Of a stretch of DNA of 64,000 bases, positions 5,462 to 10,527 are shown one piece after another. Each line of letters begins with the position of its first letter. Positions within the stretch are counted from its first letter, which is position 1. The DNA comes from Bacteroidia bacterium (GTDB lineage Bacteria > Bacteroidota > Bacteroidia > UKL13-3), in the NCBI GenBank assembly GCA_044351265.1, contig JBILGC010000006.1, positions 3,167 to 67,166 of the forward strand, read 5' to 3'. The translations under genes were made by a program, and so were the position numbers. The notes below the pieces were generated by a model. It did not search any database and was not told where the DNA came from. It was given only the letters and a program-made list of their open reading frames with translations.

Positions 5462-6514
5462 ATGAAATATCTAATCAAATCGGCTCGTGAAAAAAAGGGC
5501 TTGCTGGTGCGCGAGGTAGCGCAGGAGTTGAATATTGATCAGGCTTTGGTAAGCAAATTTGAAAGCGGAGCCCGAAAGCCCACCCGTGAGCAGGTAATTA
5601 AGCTGGCCTCGCTCCTTGGCTTGAATGCGAATGACTTACTGGTGCAGTGGCTTAAAGAAAAAATTATCTATGAAATAGGAGACGATGCATTGGCCCTCGA
5701 AGCTATGATGGCTGCTGAAGCTGAATTGAAAATGAAGCACTCGTATGGCGCTAAAGCACCCATACCTAAAGCCATAAAATCGGTGTTGAAGGAAATAGAT
5801 GCGTGTAAAAAGAAACTGAATACGCTGCGTGAGTTTGATAGCTACCGCATTGCACAGGCGCTAGAACTGGAGTATACTTTTGAAAGTAACCGCATAGAAG
5901 GCAATACGCTTACGCTTAAAGAAACTAATCTGGTCATTAACGAAGGACTTACTATTAGTGGAAAAACTATGCGCGAGCACCTGGAAGCTATTAATCACAA
6001 GGAGGCCATAGATTATATGAAATACCTGATTGATAAACATTCAGAAATCAATGAACGGGAGGTTTTGGCTATTCATAACCTTATTCTGCGTGGTATTGAT
6101 CAGGCCAATGCAGGCCGGTATCGCCATGTTCAGGTGATGATAAAAGGAAGTAGCCATACACCACCAGCACCTTATCTGGTAACTAAGCAAATGGAAGATT
6201 TGTTTATCTGGTATGAAACAAATAAGCGCAGTTTACACCCGGTGCTACTGGCTGCCGAAATGCATGAACGACTGGTAACTATTCATCCCTTTGTAGATGG
6301 CAATGGCCGCACTTCGCGCCTGGTGATGAATCTGATATTGCTGAAACACGGCTATGTGATTGCCAATATAAAAGGTGATAGCAAAAGCCGCATGGCTTAT
6401 TACAATGCGCTCGAAAAGGTACAGACAGGAGGCAGCAAAATTGATTTTATGCAGCTGATAGCTGCCTATGAGCTGGAAGCTATTGCGCGGTATGTTTCAA
6501 TTCTAAATAAATAA
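5462..6514 (+). CDS. XRE-type HTH fused to class II Fic (Fido) AMPylase
   Basis: N-terminal HTH (REVAQELNIDQALVSKFESGARKP), inhibitory SNRIEG helix, catalytic HPFVDGNGRTSR. Confidence 0.93.
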   Translation: MKYLIKSAREKKGLLVREVAQELNIDQALVSKFESGARKPTREQVIKLASLLGLNANDLLVQWLKEKIIYEIGDDALALEAMMAAEAELKMKHSYGAKAPIPKAIKSVLKEIDACKKKLNTLREFDSYRIAQALELEYTFESNRIEGNTLTLKETNLVINEGLTISGKTMREHLEAINHKEAIDYMKYLIDKHSEINEREVLAIHNLILRGIDQANAGRYRHVQVMIKGSSHTPPAPYLVTKQMEDLFIWYETNKRSLHPVLLAAEMHERLVTIHPFVDGNGRTSRLVMNLILLKHGYVIANIKGDSKSRMAYYNALEKVQTGGSKIDFMQLIAAYELEAIARYVSILNK

Positions 6515-6542
6515 AAAAGACCAACATGTTTGGTCTTTTTTT
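6513..6542. terminator. Bidirectional intrinsic terminator (Fic / paaD)
   Basis: AAAAAAGACCAA-catgt-TTGGTCTTTTTT. Confidence 0.8.
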
Positions 6543-7026
6543 ACACCACCGGCTTAAATCCTTCAAACGCCTGTAAGCAATTGTTGCAATAATGCATACT
6601 GCGGCAAAGCGTAGGACCAAAGGGCGATTTCATTTCGGTGTTTTTGCTGCCGCAAAACGGACATTCAGTATGTTCCAATAGTTCTTGCGTTACTTCTCCC
6701 TGATGTTTTACGGGTGGTGCCAAGCCGTGTTTCTTCAAACACATCAACCCACGTGCTGTAAGTTTATTGCTGTCCCAGGGTTTATCAAATGTAGTTACCA
6801 CTTCTACAGTTTCAATACCCATTTCTTTCAACCGCTCGGCTACCATATTTTCCATCATTTTAATGGCCGGACAACCGGTAAAAGTAGGAGTCATTTCCAC
6901 AAATACATTGCTTTCGCCACGCACTTCTACTTTGGTAATTATGCCCATATCCACTATACTCAATGTAGGTATTTCGGGGTCTTTTACCACCTCAAGGGCT
7001 TGCCATATTTGGGCTTCGGTTAGCAT
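6541..7026 (-). CDS. paaD: Phenylacetyl-CoA epoxidase maturation subunit PaaD
   Basis: VKDPEIPTLSIVDMGI, TPTFTGCPA, CPFCGS...FGPTLCRS..YCNNC. Confidence 0.93.
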   Translation of the reverse strand: MLTEAQIWQALEVVKDPEIPTLSIVDMGIITKVEVRGESNVFVEMTPTFTGCPAIKMMENMVAERLKEMGIETVEVVTTFDKPWDSNKLTARGLMCLKKHGLAPPVKHQGEVTQELLEHTECPFCGSKNTEMKSPFGPTLCRSMHYCNNCLQAFEGFKPVV

Positions 7027-7036
7027 GTTGATTTGA

Positions 7037-7153
7037 TTAGAAGGTTGGGAAAATTAGAAGGTTACAAGGTTTAGAAAGATTAGAAGGTTGAAAAGTTAAA
7101 CGGTTGCTTTGATTAGTCAATAACTTTCTAACCTTTCAACCTTCTAACTTTAA
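7037..7153. repeat. Inverted pair of 8-nt tandem arrays forming a hairpin (empty element) in the paaC-paaD spacer
   Basis: About 8 units (TTAGAAGG, TTACAAGG, TTGAAAAG...) at 7037-7103 and reverse-complement units at 7121-7153. 7080-7098 pairs with 7129-7147 at 18/19 positions. Confidence 0.85.
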
Positions 7154-7161
7154 AATCCCTC

Positions 7162-7911
7162 CTACCACTCCGCAGTCGGGTCAATTTTAAACACTTCGCT
7201 CATTTCATCCAGTAAGGGTTGCAGGTGCTCGGTGTGCATACCTTTACGCCCGCCATACAAAGGTTGCCATGAGGTTTCATCGGGTATAGTAAGCGTTGCT
7301 TTGGTAAGGATAGGTGAAATAATACCCAGCCAGCGTTTTTTCAATTCGGCTTCACCTTCAAATATTTTTTCGCTAATGAGTTGTTGCTCGTGTTCGCTTG
7401 CTTCAAACATTCCCAATGCGTAATCCCACGCTTCGTTTAATGCATTTTGCATACGAATATGGCTTTCTTCGGTAGCGGCACCCATTTTGGTTATCCATGT
7501 ATTTGCATGAAACACGTGGTATTTCAATTCACCTTTTACTTTGCGGGCAACTTTAGCCAGTGGCTCGTAGCTTGAATTGGCAAGCATATCAAAACGCAAC
7601 TGATCGGCCGTATCAAAAAGAAAATGACGTATAGTACTGAAATCGTATTCGCCATTTGGCAACTCCACAAATTGGCTGTTGTGAAACTGATTGGCATTGC
7701 GGGTAAAAGCAACGGTATCGGGTTCCTGCTCACCCAGTTGATGCAGCAATTGATAGAGCGCTTGTGCTTGTCCAATTTTGTCCTGCGCCATAGATGAAAA
7801 CGCGATGTCTTCTTCCAGTATGGGTCCAAGCCCGGTCCATTCGCTGTTGCGGTGGCCAAGTATCAGCAGGTCGTCTGCCATTTTATAGAGGAGGTCTTTG
7901 ATGTGGTTCAT
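7162..7911 (-). CDS. paaC: Phenylacetyl-CoA epoxidase subunit PaaC
   Basis: ADDLLILGHRNSEWTG, PILEEDIA, KGELKYH, DPTAEW C-terminus. Confidence 0.95.
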   Translation of the reverse strand: MNHIKDLLYKMADDLLILGHRNSEWTGLGPILEEDIAFSSMAQDKIGQAQALYQLLHQLGEQEPDTVAFTRNANQFHNSQFVELPNGEYDFSTIRHFLFDTADQLRFDMLANSSYEPLAKVARKVKGELKYHVFHANTWITKMGAATEESHIRMQNALNEAWDYALGMFEASEHEQQLISEKIFEGEAELKKRWLGIISPILTKATLTIPDETSWQPLYGGRKGMHTEHLQPLLDEMSEVFKIDPTAEW

Positions 7912-7922
7912 TTGTTTTTTAA

Positions 7923-7979
7923 TTACAAGGTTGAAAGGTTTGATAGTTGCAAAGTTGTAAGCGTTAGAAAGTTGAAATT
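7923..7979. repeat. Solo 8-nt tandem array in the paaB-paaC spacer
   Basis: TTACAAGG TTGAAAGG TTTGATAG TTGCAAAG TTGTAAGCG TTAGAAAG TTGAAATT. Confidence 0.8.
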
Positions 7980-8021
7980 TTGGTGCGCTGGGCTACACTT
8001 CATCGAATGGGGTCTGCGCTG

Positions 8022-8393
8022 CTATCCCTTTTGTTCTTTTTTATATTTATTGATTTTCTCCATCACTTTATAGCCACCTGCTTCGCGGTATTGTTTTTCG
8101 GGTACGGTTTCAAAAATATCGGAGTCATCATAGTCAGAAGTAAACACATCGGCAGAGCGTACCACCCAAATATTTACACTCACTCCCCTGCGACCGAATT
8201 GTTCTTTGCCAAACAGCAAAGCCATTTCTGCATTGGGTGCGTGAACGATGCCAACATGCATATGCTGGTCGCCACGTTTTTTCTGGTGAAATACTTCATA
8301 TGTTTCCCACTGATCCAGTTCGTTCAGGGGTTTTATTTCATTGTTGAGTTCTATCTGTGCGCGGTTTACGCGAGGGTCGAGGGATTTGATCAT
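8022..8393 (-). CDS. paaB: Phenylacetyl-CoA epoxidase subunit PaaB
   Basis: WETYEVF, HVGIVHAPNAEMAL, GRR...NIWVV, KQYR; position in paa operon. Confidence 0.9.
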   Translation of the reverse strand: MIKSLDPRVNRAQIELNNEIKPLNELDQWETYEVFHQKKRGDQHMHVGIVHAPNAEMALLFGKEQFGRRGVSVNIWVVRSADVFTSDYDDSDIFETVPEKQYREAGGYKVMEKINKYKKEQKG

Positions 8394-8405
8394 TGCCTTT
8401 TATTA

Positions 8406-8459
8406 TTACAAGGTTAAAAAGATTAGAAGGTTATGAAAGTTGGAAAAATTACAAGGTTG
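8406..8459. repeat. 8-nt tandem array at the 3' end of the four-helix-bundle gene
   Basis: TTACAAGG TTAAAAAGA TTAGAAGG TTATGAAAG TTGGAAAAA TTACAAGG TTG; the last unit contains the ORF stop codon. Confidence 0.8.
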
Positions 8460-8844
8460 GGCTACTATTTTGTTTCCGATGTGCTGATAAATACTTCAGG
8501 AAGTTTTTTATACTTTTAGAAATAACAAGTACACGTTCTACCAATTGTTGATGGGTTTGGTCATCAATTTGTTTTGTTCGATGAAATGCGTGTAGCATAC
8601 CGCGAACCTCACCCGCTGAACCTTTAGCATAACGAAGGAAGCGAATAAATTGGAGGTTGTTTTCATATTCGAATCCTTCTGCAATATTATTTGATATAGA
8701 TAATGTTGCTCTGATTAACTGATCTCTAATGCCAAGTTCAAACTTAAATCCGGGACCTTTGGAGGCTTCATACACATCAACGTAAAGGTCGATTGCACGA
8801 TTCCAAATATCCAGGTCTTCAAATGTTTCAACTTTCTCAGTCAT
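8449..8844 (-). CDS. Four-helix-bundle protein (TIGR02436 / 23S rRNA IVS protein / Avd-like family)
   Basis: FEDLDIW, RDQLIRATLSISNNIAEGF, FIRFLRYAKGSAGEV family motifs. ATG 8844 preferred over TTG 8856. Confidence 0.92.
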   Translation of the reverse strand: MTEKVETFEDLDIWNRAIDLYVDVYEASKGPGFKFELGIRDQLIRATLSISNNIAEGFEYENNLQFIRFLRYAKGSAGEVRGMLHAFHRTKQIDDQTHQQLVERVLVISKSIKNFLKYLSAHRKQNSSPTL

Positions 8845-8857
8845 TCCTCTAATCAAT

Positions 8858-8880
8858 CTTTCAACCTTCTAACTTTCCAA
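8858..8880. repeat. Inverted 8-nt array arm upstream of the four-helix-bundle gene
   Basis: CTTTCAACCTTCTAACTTTCCAA; 8858-8876 is identical to 7133-7151. Confidence 0.8.
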
Positions 8881-8886
8881 ATTTAA

Positions 8887-9876
8887 TTATGCTAAAGGCA
8901 CTACATATTTCGATTGAGGGGTGTTGAGCGCTTCGCGTACCCAGCGGCCACGTTCTTCGGCATTTCTGCGCACAGCAAGTCTTTCTGCATTACAAGGGCC
9001 ACCACCATTGATTACACGTTTAAATTCATCCCAATCCGGTTCGGTGTATTCCCACTTACCTGTTTCTTCGTTCTTTTTCAGATTCGCATCAGGCACGGTT
9101 AATCCCAAATCCCATATTTTAGGTACATACATGTTCAAGAATTGCTGACGCATATCGTCATTGGTAGCCATTTTCACTTTCCAGCGCATTAATATTTCAG
9201 TATGGTTACTGATTTTATCGCTTGGTCCGAAGAAGTGCATGATAGGCGGCCACCAGCGGTTAAGCGCTTCTTGCACCATTTTGCGCTGGGTAGGTGTACC
9301 TGTAGCAAGGGTTACTACATTATCGTGTCCGTATTTTAAATGGAAGCTCTCTTCTGTACAAATACGATCGAGCGCACGGCAATAAGGTCCGTAGCTTCCT
9401 TTGGCATTGGCCACCTGATTGATAATGGCGCCTGCATCAATTAACCACGCAATGATGCACGCATCAGCCCAGGTAAATGCCGGATAGTTAAATACATTTG
9501 AATATTTTGATTTGCCTGTAATCAAATCATTGATCATGGCTTCGCGGCTTTTGCCGAGCGTTTCAGCTGCGCTGTATAGTAACTGGGCATGACCAACTTC
9601 ATCCTGTACCTTGGCCATTAATGCCAGCTTGCGCTTAAAGCCCGGAGCACGTGTAATCCATGTTCCTTCGGGTAATGCGCCAATAATTTCAGAGTGACCA
9701 TGCTGTTCAATCATGCGAATGAGCTGCTTGCGGTACTCGCGAGGCATCCAGTCTTTGGGTTCAATTTTTTCGCCACGTGCAATGCGGGCTTCGAATTCGG
9801 CTAGTTTAACGGGATCCTCTCCGTCAATAATTGACTTTGGTTTTTCGTTAGGGTCGATGTAGGCGTTTCCGTACAT
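8887..9876 (-). CDS. paaA: Phenylacetyl-CoA epoxidase catalytic subunit PaaA
   Basis: [40 protein letters not shown] di-iron ligands. Confidence 0.97.
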
Positions 9877-9915: not shown

Positions 9916-10527
9916 TTAAGGTGTGTAATGGGGGTCGGTAATTAATTTTTTGCGTATGCCACAAATGATAATATCGGCTAGTTTTTTGGCTATTTGAGAT
10001 GGGTTCATGCTGCCATCCGCTTTATACCATTGGTGAATCCAGTTTACAGATGAAAGGATGGTAAGTGCAGCAAACTTTTCATCTACATCATCAAACAAAT
10101 CTTCGGTTGCGCCATCTTTTACAATTATCCGGAATTGTTGTTCATAGCTGTCGCGCAGCTTTCTGAATTCACTCAACTTAGGCTCTGGCAGGCTTCTCCA
10201 TTCTGATAAAAAAACAGCTGTGTTATCTAGATTTTCGCAGGTAATTTGGACATGGTATTGAATGGCCATACGCAGGCGTTCTTCCGCATTGAAGTAGATA
10301 TCGTTTACCTCTTTTAACGCTGTAATAAAACGGTCGGCCATGTCAAAACAAATAGCAATAAGAATTTCTTCTTTTGATTTGATATGGTGATAGAGGCTGG
10401 CAGCTTCAATACCCAGATCGGAAGCAATATGACGCATGCTGGTTGCCTCATAGCCCTTGTTTTTAAACAACCGGGCAGCCACCTGCATGATTTGTTCTTT
10501 TCTATTGATAGTCAACGTTTCTGCCAT
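9916..10527 (-). CDS. TetR family regulator (PaaR-like), first gene of paa operon
   Basis: TetR HTH (KGYEATSMRHIASDLGIEAASLYHHIKSKEEIL), directly upstream of paaA. Confidence 0.9.
   Translation of the reverse strand: MAETLTINRKEQIMQVAARLFKNKGYEATSMRHIASDLGIEAASLYHHIKSKEEILIAICFDMADRFITALKEVNDIYFNAEERLRMAIQYHVQITCENLDNTAVFLSEWRSLPEPKLSEFRKLRDSYEQQFRIIVKDGATEDLFDDVDEKFAALTILSSVNWIHQWYKADGSMNPSQIAKKLADIIICGIRKKLITDPHYTP

Follow-up and report, generated by a model that had tools for sequence, protein, structure and literature searches.

How does a small gene reside inside a tightly packed protein-coding operon, and what is the purpose of the inverted repeat arrays that enclose it? The question is raised by the paa operon of a Bacteroidia bacterium (GTDB lineage UKL13-3), in which a four-helix-bundle gene framed by arrays of a degenerate 8-nt unit lies between paaA and paaB, and in which related arrays occupy the other spacers. 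We refer to the whole stretch of DNA analyzed, 64,000 nt of contig JBILGC010000006.1 (GenBank assembly GCA_044351265.1), as the window, and compare its paa locus with the rest of the genome, with genomes of the same bacterial family, and with more distant bacteria.

The inserted gene and the arrays of the paa spacers

The genes, arms, and arrays discussed here are collected in Table 1. A terminator scan places a terminator-like hairpin after paaD (6513-6541), which is the sole convincing one; within the paa spacers, terminators and promoters do not rise above shuffle expectation. Contigs assembled from RNA libraries bridge paaA, the 5′ arm, and the ORF, as well as the ORF, the 3′ arm, and paaB; as assembled contigs they are blind to transcript ends and may contain DNA. 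The region 7005-7125 is uncovered by contigs in all four RNA runs, and several contigs stop at the arms, to which we attach no meaning because short-period repeats break assemblies.

Table 1. Features of the paa operon, in minus-strand order, and related arrays on other contigs of the assembly
Feature	Position	Strand	Evidence and remarks
TetR gene	9916-10527	(-)	Upstream of paaA
paaA, upstream host gene	8887-9876	(-)	PF05138, E 5.9e-83
5′ arm of cassette	8846-8881	(-)	C-poor, about four 8-nt units, reaches the start codon of the bundle gene; repeat families D3, I2/I5/I8; paired in the MFE structure
Four-helix-bundle gene	8449-8844	(-)	131 aa from ATG at 8844; PF05635 / TIGR02436
3′ arm of cassette	8406-8459	(-)	G-poor; extends into the final codons of the ORF; D1, D2; paired in the MFE structure
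paaB, downstream host gene	8022-8393	(-)	PF06243, E 1.4e-25
One-armed G-poor array, paaB|paaC spacer (7912-8021)	7921-7976	(-)	D2, I1, I7; without partner arm
paaC	7162-7911	(-)	PF05138, E 5.5e-75
ORF-less hairpin, paaC|paaD spacer (7027-7161)	7036-7155	(-)	I3 and I4; fold
paaD, last gene of the operon	6541-7026	(-)	PF23451 and PF01883
Non-paa clusters of the octamer unit	C10:3897-3928 and C70:9023-9046		Intergenic

The product of the inserted gene matches the PF05635 profile with 88.5 bits (cut-off 33.8; profile positions 1-105 of 106), the TIGR02436 profile with 88.2 bits (cut-off 24), and PDB 2gsc_A with E 1.7e-7, which identifies it by sequence as a member of the 23S rRNA intervening sequence (IVS) protein family. 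By eye, its translation contains RxxxSxxxNxxE, with a residue other than G at the leading position of the family motif GxxRxxxSxxxNxxE given in the accessible part of PMC3936711. The available literature describes a homopentameric barrel for both 2GSC and Avd. With a pI of 8.0 and a net charge of +1, the focal protein is close to neutral, and the set as a whole is only mildly basic, with a median pI of 8.6. The ratio dN/dS is 0.08 between the focal ORF and its orthologue in genome G003 and lies between 0.02 and 0.23 in all 13 of the 13 computable pairs of cassette ORFs, indicating purifying selection. None of the genome's own PF05635 matches lies beside an rRNA gene in the flanks read, and PADLOC gives no defense-system match.

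The initial annotation of the window described the paaA|paaB insert as the full form, and the arrays at the other two junctions as empty and solo forms, of one element. Letter-for-letter comparison confirms its arm positions and the three exact blocks that link the copies, of 19 nt (7133-7151 = 8858-8876), 15 nt (7075-7089 = 8418-8432), and 13 nt (7921-7933 = 8447-8459), and both repeat search and folding find the full, empty, and one-armed pattern to be real. The repeat search of the spacers returns direct families D1-D3 and inverted pairs I1-I5 and I8, including a 26-nt inverted pair with 85% complementarity and 16 nt between its halves (7080-7105/7122-7147). In mRNA sense, the ORF-less hairpin runs from a C-poor arm (7122-7155) through a 16-nt loop to a G-poor arm with further G-poor units (7036-7105).

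Folding of the sequence from the paaA stop to the paaB start gives an MFE of -123.1 kcal/mol with the arms paired around the ORF (z = -3.35; 0/100 shuffles as good). The cassette arms pair over ~35-40 bp in this predicted fold, with the paaA stop codon 6 nt ahead of the base of the stem and the end of the 3′ arm ~20 nt short of the paaB start codon. The paaC|paaD spacer folds with -42.5 kcal/mol (z = -5.0; 0/200 shuffles as good), and no structure is found in the paaB|paaC spacer (z = +1.1; 175/200 shuffles as good), in agreement with its having a single arm. A known RNA family was considered for the paaC|paaD hairpin and rejected, as Rfam offers only sub-threshold matches to miRNA hairpins there (let-7, scoring 34 bits where the gathering score is 53.5).

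Distribution and anatomy of the arms

The initial annotation noticed no such octamer arrays elsewhere in the window than in the paa spacers. A regular expression for the degenerate unit finds 61 units in the window, 19 of these in 7000-8900, and only five clusters with at least three in-phase units in the 2.41-Mb assembly. Three of the five lie in paa spacers, but the arrays are limited neither to the paa operon nor to four-helix-bundle genes, because intergenic arrays exist on contigs C10 and C70 (Table 1), where Rfam reports nothing. The genome's own paaC|paaD hairpin has matches only in the paa spacers and on these two contigs. A strict k-mer search for arrays elsewhere gives matches for 6/90 cassettes, among them both cassettes of this genome and the G004 type, all at C10:3775-3996, where three arm types stand side by side. 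The homologous region carries other purine-rich arrays in genomes G002 and G004 and none in G001, and it is therefore not a conserved hub.

We identified 136 PF05635 matches in the bacterial family, with at least one in each of its 31 genomes (31/31), and used the 90 intact genes to measure pairing between the 80 nt upstream and the 80 nt downstream of each gene. In this lineage, family genes commonly stand between inverted short-period arms: pairing reaches -35 kcal/mol or lower for 24/90 PF05635 genes vs. 6/327 ordinary ORFs of 100-173 aa from the focal genome, two of the six being that genome's own two PF05635 genes, and it reaches -40 kcal/mol or lower for 14/90 vs. 0/327. In addition, 23/90 fall below the first percentile of 600 mismatched arm pairs, and z is above -2 in 42/90. 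The pairing thresholds are passed by about a quarter to half of PF05635 genes, depending on the threshold, and these counts overstate the support since kin genomes are not independent. Shuffles, mismatched pairs, and gene controls together rule out chance or low complexity as the source of the arms.

The layout extends beyond the bacterial family. PF05635 occurs in 64/81 genomes of a phylum-wide Bacteroidota sample, with up to 16 copies, and in 30 loci taken from 30 different genomes, 29 of which have both 80-nt flanks, pairing at or below -40 kcal/mol is found in 12/29. Among the control genomes, Bacteroides thetaiotaomicron also has a PF05635 match. PF05635 genes on two cyanobacterial plasmids, from Nostoc and Calothrix, have the same layout, with arms that are G-rich upstream and C-rich downstream. 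Neighboring genes are co-directional for 65 of 88 PF05635 genes. A full-text literature search, conducted outside most subscription journals and supplements, did not find the layout described beyond rRNA.

The arms share an anatomy rather than a sequence. Strong short-period self-matches are present in 23/90 downstream and 7/90 upstream flanks and in 0/300 control flanks for each side; 25 of these 30 flanks have a 7-nt period. The polarity of the arms is fixed, the 5′ arm being G-rich and C-poor (G exceeds C in 28/30 stems) and the 3′ arm G-poor. In 25 cassettes, a median of 5 nt lies between the upstream stop and the beginning of the 5′ arm, and a median of 10 nt between the end of the 3′ arm and the next start, so that stop and start are separated by 20 unpaired nt compared with a linear distance of 503 nt; the inserted segment begins and ends with the arms, which abut the stop and start codons of its neighbors. 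Arm sequences are locus-specific, with no terminal repeat in common between loci. Cognate arms outpair the arms of same-site orthologues in 35/49 comparisons (mean difference -4.7 kcal/mol), indicating that the arms co-vary between orthologous cassettes, and arm divergence K is lower than dS in 11/14 arm comparisons (both arms, seven pairs).

Pairing of the arms in mRNA around the ORF, as first proposed, is predicted by the fold, but the wobble counts carry no sense-strand signal: 30 ungapped stems contain 12 G.U vs. 31 A.C mismatches, with no enrichment for sense RNA, and 24 gapped stems contain 13 vs. 19 (P = 0.38). In the absence of a wobble bias, a role at the DNA level fits equally well.

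Junction alleles and competing readings

Relatives do include junctions that lack the insert, as had been expected. Of 21 loci of the bacterial family, 7 have a paaA|paaB spacer of 1-13 nt, and the spacer measures at most 22 nt in 24/67 wider Bacteroidota loci, where some gap lengths are inflated by divergent paaB N termini, indicating that insert-free junction alleles exist. In Pontibacter and Adhaeribacter, the paaA|paaB junction is occupied by ORF-less hairpins. Inserts of ~1.4 kb at the paa junctions of other genomes were considered as cassettes and rejected, as they consist of ordinary genes and lack arms of this kind. In a check for target-site duplication, the divergence between occupied and tight junctions prevented alignment over the insertion point.

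Such polymorphism would be expected of an active mobile family, in which MITE-like hairpins accompany an autonomous ORF-bearing form and the bundle protein is an end-binding mobility factor for reactions catalyzed by host enzymes. It would account for the arms being the exact termini of the inserted segment, for two genomes of a single genus differing at paaA|paaB, with a junction of 1 nt vs. an ORF-less hairpin of 124 nt, for two cassette types with only 42-47% protein identity at one paa junction, each found in genera g1 and g8, and for arrays of cassette units elsewhere in the genome, with the three arm types at C10. A few different-site pairs also have both related proteins and related arms (e.g., L066/L067 and L100/L103), and 94 different-site arm pairs have at least one 11-mer in common, vs. 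26-37 pairs in shuffles, with several in common in only a handful; this sharing suggests old moves. We nevertheless consider an active family unlikely, and the earlier claim that the elements are now colonizing junctions is not supported. Near-identical dispersed copies, the mark of MITE or REP-like elements, are not found: 2.41 Mb contain five array clusters, the closest same-genome, different-site protein pair is only ~77-79% identical, and 34/45 closest protein pairs are formed by same-site genes of different genomes. The arms are unlike between loci, the ORFs evolve like host genes, the genome's own hairpin has few matches, all named above, and the ORF-less hairpin tested in the related genome G023 has one copy in its own genome and none in a congener. 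No transposase or reverse transcriptase (RT) is linked, as the initial annotation stated: the genome's single RT (PF00078, C82:3882-4472) is retron-like and on another contig, which argues against RT-dependent mobility, and an IS200/IS605 Y1 transposase is not found in the 95.6%-complete assembly. Altogether, the sequences give no sign of recent or ongoing transposition.

The arrays could instead be intercistronic signals selected by the host, similar to REP/BIME elements, with a G-free leader aiding initiation, a hairpin stabilizing or uncoupling the upstream message, and the bundle gene as a passenger. Bacteroidota initiate without Shine-Dalgarno pairing, and a G-poor array lies ahead of every paa start codon, and the ordinary leaders of this genome are likewise G-poor (G makes up 13.8% of the 50 nt preceding start codons); the occurrence of one-armed and ORF-less versions and the proximity of the 3′ arm to the next start point the same way. 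What makes this reading quite improbable is that strong pairing and short-period arrays are tied to PF05635 genes and nearly or wholly missing from the controls, that cyanobacteria have the same layout with a C-rich downstream arm, and that, as far as the accessible literature goes, the layout recurs in an rRNA, where translation is not involved. There is an even slimmer chance that the arms form a site defined by its structure in DNA, a hairpin or cruciform comparable to integron attC, whose conserved shape permits exchange or deletion of whole cassettes. Locus-specific sequence with conserved complementarity, the missing wobble bias, and the apparent swap of cassette types at one junction are what such a site predicts, but the focal locus has no linked recombinase, and a fixed arm polarity relative to the ORF and the next start is easier to explain at the level of RNA or translation.

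A proposed stem-enclosed cassette and its known counterparts

We give roughly even odds (probability ~0.5) to a resident, stem-insulated cassette of IVS type lodged in mRNA, consisting of a PF05635 (S23p/Avd-family) gene closed off by two inverted arms of short tandem units. In the transcript the arms would pair into the predicted stem and loop out the ORF, leaving ~26 unpaired nt rather than ~495 nt between paaA stop and paaB start, so that the insert would hardly disturb a junction measuring 1-13 nt in relatives without it. The G-poor 3′ arm may also provide the next gene with an unstructured leader, and the stem may be cleaved, as in rRNA, by RNase III, whose gene is present in the genome. 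By analogy with Avd, which binds RNA near its own gene, the cassette protein probably binds its own stem. The ORF-less hairpin at paaC|paaD and the single arm at paaB|paaC would be reduced copies of the cassette's unit type, and cassettes would be passed on vertically or exchanged as whole alleles via the highly conserved flanking genes. Several observations speak against this reading: the wobble counts carry no RNA signal, the pairing thresholds single out about a quarter to half of the family genes, arrays of cassette units also lie away from any family gene, and the focal protein is almost neutral in charge.

More tentatively, the PF05635 protein and its periodic inverted arms may constitute one self-contained module, in which a pentamer clasps the stem that encloses its own gene. 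If so, the module could reside harmlessly in any transcript, be it rRNA, as in the classical IVS, or a tight operon junction; a very large orphan family would have a function, with rRNA IVSs as a special case, and such cassettes would be the stock from which the Avd of diversity-generating retroelements (DGRs) was recruited. PF05635/TIGR02436 ranks among the most frequent families of small genes annotated as "hypothetical" in Bacteroidota and cyanobacteria, and to our knowledge Avd and the rRNA IVS are its only functional anchors. A conserved cis-anatomy, comprising a repeat-built stem, fixed polarity, and codon-abutting ends, offers a testable handle on the function of the family; it would also explain the tolerance of long inserts within tightly coupled operons and would place inserts in mRNA and intervening sequences of rRNA in a single class.

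Avd, which has been linked to PF05635 (PMC10053308), is a pentameric four-helix-bundle barrel, all five protomers of which contact an 11-bp stem-loop RNA directly downstream of avd, whose 3′ end pairs with the downstream RNA, according to the accessible part of the report (bioRxiv 10.1101/2023.10.23.563531). The cassette protein belongs to the same fold family; unlike a DGR, the cassette gene has neither an adjacent RT nor a template/variable repeat pair.

The resemblance to ORF-bearing rRNA IVSs noted in the initial annotation is reinforced by the recurrence of stem-enclosed PF05635 genes. In the Coxiella 23S IVS, a 28-bp terminal stem occurs together with tandem GACAGAT heptamers (PMC4990558, accessible text). 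The paa cassette shares with the IVSs of Leptospira and Coxiella the protein family encoded inside the loop and the terminal inverted repeats that enclose the ORF in a long stem. Short tandem repeats of strain-variable copy number lie just upstream of the ORF in such IVSs, and the 5′ arm of the paa cassette likewise varies in unit number, by one extra unit in the G003 orthologue. The paa cassette differs in its host transcript, a protein-coding operon (paaA|paaB) rather than an rRNA helix, and in its ORF, which evolves under apparent purifying selection whereas that of Coxiella is reported, in the material available, to be decaying and untranslated; RNase III cuts rRNA IVSs and may cut the paa cassette.

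REP/BIME and Correia-type elements are short inverted-repeat hairpins that are co-transcribed in operon junctions, some of them being cut by RNase III or stabilizing upstream mRNA. The paa-type hairpins resemble these in being inverted repeats at operon junctions, but whereas REP/BIME and Correia elements are multicopy and have a common sequence, paa-type hairpins are single- or few-copy, locus-specific, built from tandem units, and often equipped with an ORF.

The cassette in the paa operon

Annotated features at the focal locus
Feature	Position	Strand	Remark
TetR gene	9916-10527	-	
paaA	8887-9876	-	
131-aa ORF, PF05635/TIGR02436	8449-8844	-	profile matches
paaB	8022-8393	-	
paaC	7162-7911	-	
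paaD	6541-7026	-	terminator-like hairpin after paaD
HTH-Fic fusion gene (PF02661 + HTH_3)	5462-6514	+	convergent with paa operon end

The ORF product scores 88.5 bits against PF05635 (cut-off 33.8) and 88.2 bits against TIGR02436, and aligns to 2gsc_A, a Xanthomonas protein of known structure, at E = 1.7e-7. Read in mRNA sense, the spacer between paaA and the ORF consists of about four 8-nt units and is C-poor; the G-poor run of the ORF|paaB spacer is complementary to it. Both arms recur in the paaC|paaD spacer, 16 nt apart, and G-poor units only in the paaB|paaC spacer; the three exact blocks that the initial annotation reported between these spacers are all identical. Its proposed pairing of the arms around the ORF is supported by the predicted fold of the RNA from paaA stop to paaB start (z = -3.35, equaled by 0 of 100 shuffles), in which the stem would leave 6 + 20 unpaired nt between the two genes. 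The ORF-less paaC|paaD spacer is predicted to fold at -42.5 kcal/mol (z = -5.0), and folding prediction gives no structure for the one-armed paaB|paaC spacer. The 8-nt unit is rare, with five clusters of at least three units in the 2.41-Mb assembly, three at the paa locus and two in other intergenic regions (contigs C10 and C70).

In assemblies of four lake-water RNA libraries, contigs link paaA through the 5' arm to the ORF in three runs, link the ORF through the 3' arm to paaB in one run, and cross the paaB|paaC spacer in three runs; none among the four libraries joins across the whole cassette. These contigs fit cotranscription, with DNA carry-over possible and processing invisible in contigs.

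Complementary arms around PF05635 genes

Every one of the 31 genomes sampled from the same bacterial family has PF05635 matches, 136 in total; we analyzed the flanks of 90 uninterrupted genes, most of which are, by eye, flanked by inverted short-period arrays with a locus-specific unit. The scan of family genes for such arrays, suggested by the initial annotation, returned strong flank pairing (-35 kcal/mol or below) in 24 of 90 PF05635 genes vs. 6 of 327 ordinary ORFs of 100-173 aa, two of these six being the own genome's family genes; at -40 kcal/mol or below, the counts are 14/90 and 0/327. Pairing falls under the first percentile of 600 mismatched arm pairs in 23 of the 90 genes, and 38 have z < -3 against shuffles. 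Short-period self-matches occur in the downstream flank of 23/90 genes and the upstream flank of 7/90, vs. 0/300 controls in either case. Among the 30 periodic flanks, 25 have a 7-nt and 3 an 8-nt period, placing the focal cassette in a minority. Of 30 well-defined stems, 28 carry a 5' arm richer in G than in C.

Both neighbors lie on the same strand for 65 of 88 genes, by a crude ORF call. Across 25 cassettes with clear stems and codirectional neighbors, median distances are 5 nt from the upstream stop to the beginning of the 5' arm and 10 nt from the end of the 3' arm to the next start, so that paired arms would shrink a median gap of 503 nt to 20 unpaired nt. A view in which the arms act as RNA only is weakened by two observations: wobble-type mismatches in the stems show no sense-strand excess, and the PF05635 protein set is only mildly basic.

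In a phylum-wide sample, 64 of 81 genomes carry the family. Thirty loci, each from a different genome, were compared; most have the arm anatomy, and 12 of 29 measurable ones pair at -40 kcal/mol or below. The layout extends to two cyanobacterial plasmid genes (Nostoc, Calothrix).

The window's own genome carries a second intact PF05635 gene (C52:1454-1829) between two 2-oxoacid:ferredoxin oxidoreductase subunit genes, with arms of 7-nt period and a unit unlike the focal one; this junction is also occupied in relatives G011, G019, and G047. Interrupted or fragmentary matches at C41:16341-16532, between serC-like and serA-like genes, and at C109:7551-7705 look like decayed cassettes. Elsewhere, C10:3775-3996 holds three adjacent arrays in one divergent intergenic region of ~590 nt, their units matching the own kor-junction and paa cassettes and the alternative paa type of G002/G004. 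A ~120-nt GC-rich segment lies upstream, and an Rfam search of the region returned nothing. In G002/G004 the homologous region spans 215 nt and bears different purine-rich arrays; in G001 it is 100 nt long and array-free. We also observe a nested ORF-less periodic hairpin, one arm type inside another (C124:2096-2329), a one-armed 7-nt array of ~10.7 units adjoining a small acetyltransferase-like gene (C6:85756-85830), and an ORF-less hairpin with 7- and 14-nt units at 2053-2164 of high-GC contig C113 (2697 nt), which is probably in the bin from another organism.

Junction variation and history of the cassettes

The 21 same-family loci in which both paaA and paaB are seen show four junction classes: 7 have 1-13 nt, 6 have 43-124 nt and no ORF, 6 a PF05635 gene, and 2 an unrelated ~1.4-kb gene. 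Alleles lacking the insert, for which the initial annotation had proposed looking, exist; a single genus includes both a 1-nt junction and, in a second genome, a 124-nt hairpin that lacks an ORF and is built of the same unit type. Of 67 loci sampled more widely in Bacteroidota (paaB nearby; from 80 fetched), 24 have a junction of at most 22 nt and 4 a PF05635 gene flanked by arms of its own, the gene being interrupted in 2 of these; Pontibacter and Adhaeribacter have ORF-less periodic hairpins there. Hymenobacter species (L161, L174, L177) have a different, GC-rich palindromic, nonperiodic element at this junction. Inserts of ~1.4 kb occur at paaB|paaC (L010, L011, L014, L019, L028) and paaA|paaB (L025, L028). 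Three of the six inspected (all but L014) contain an intact ~450-aa ORF, encoding a multipass membrane protein (L019, L028) or a secreted protein whose C-terminal domain is of sorting type (L028). In L010, L011, and L025 we found no long ORF, and periodic arms are not evident at the displayed insert ends.

Same-site orthologs have dN/dS of 0.02-0.23 in 13 pairs, three more being saturated. Arm divergence is below the adjoining ORF's synonymous divergence in 11 of 14 comparisons (window vs. relative G003: arm K 0.045 and 0.057, dS 0.46). Arms pair better with their own partner than with those of same-site orthologs in 35 of 49 cases, so the arms of one cassette change together.

Present-day colonization of junctions by a full, empty, and one-armed element family is not supported: no current transposition was seen, and 34 of the 45 closest protein pairs are from the same site in different genomes, the best same-genome, different-site pair being ~77-79% identical. 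The G023 hairpin has one copy in its genome, and the own paa hairpin is matched only at the paa spacers, C10, and C70. We read these data as long residence of the cassettes, their vertical inheritance, and exchange of alleles. A few different-site pairs with related proteins and related arms suggest that whole units moved in the distant past. The paaA|paaB junction hosts two cassette types, with proteins only 42-47% identical and different arm units, both found in genera g1 and g8, where paaA is 92-99% identical; the pattern resembles allele swapping by way of the conserved flanking genes, or else a dimorphism of long standing.

Relation to known systems

A multicopy MITE is ruled out by the five array clusters in the assembly and the single- or few-copy hairpins. 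The focal cassette is not a diversity-generating retroelement (DGR), since no reverse transcriptase is linked, as initially annotated; the assembly's only one (C82:3783-4790, 335 aa) has a G-poor 8-nt array after its stop codon and looks retron-like from a structured noncoding stretch upstream. PF05635 members have been reported inside CRISPR-Cas loci, e.g., between cmr3 and cmr2 (PMC3936711), and within inserts in the rRNA of CPR bacteria (bioRxiv 10.1101/2024.02.27.582315); the portions of these accounts consulted do not describe arms. A search of a partial full-text literature turned up no account of this layout beyond rRNA, and an earlier one is possible.

The strongest outside anchors for a mechanism are the Coxiella 23S rRNA intervening sequence (IVS) and the DGR protein Avd. 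In the parts of the sources consulted, the Coxiella IVS has a 28-bp terminal stem, is excised by RNase III, and carries tandem heptamers in variable number preceding an ORF of the PF05635 family (PMC4990558). Avd, of the same fold, uses all five protomers to grip an 11-bp stem-loop located directly downstream of the avd gene, whose 3' end pairs with downstream RNA (bioRxiv 10.1101/2023.10.23.563531). The focal cassette would work like an rRNA IVS but is not lodged in rRNA, the defining feature of the IVS.
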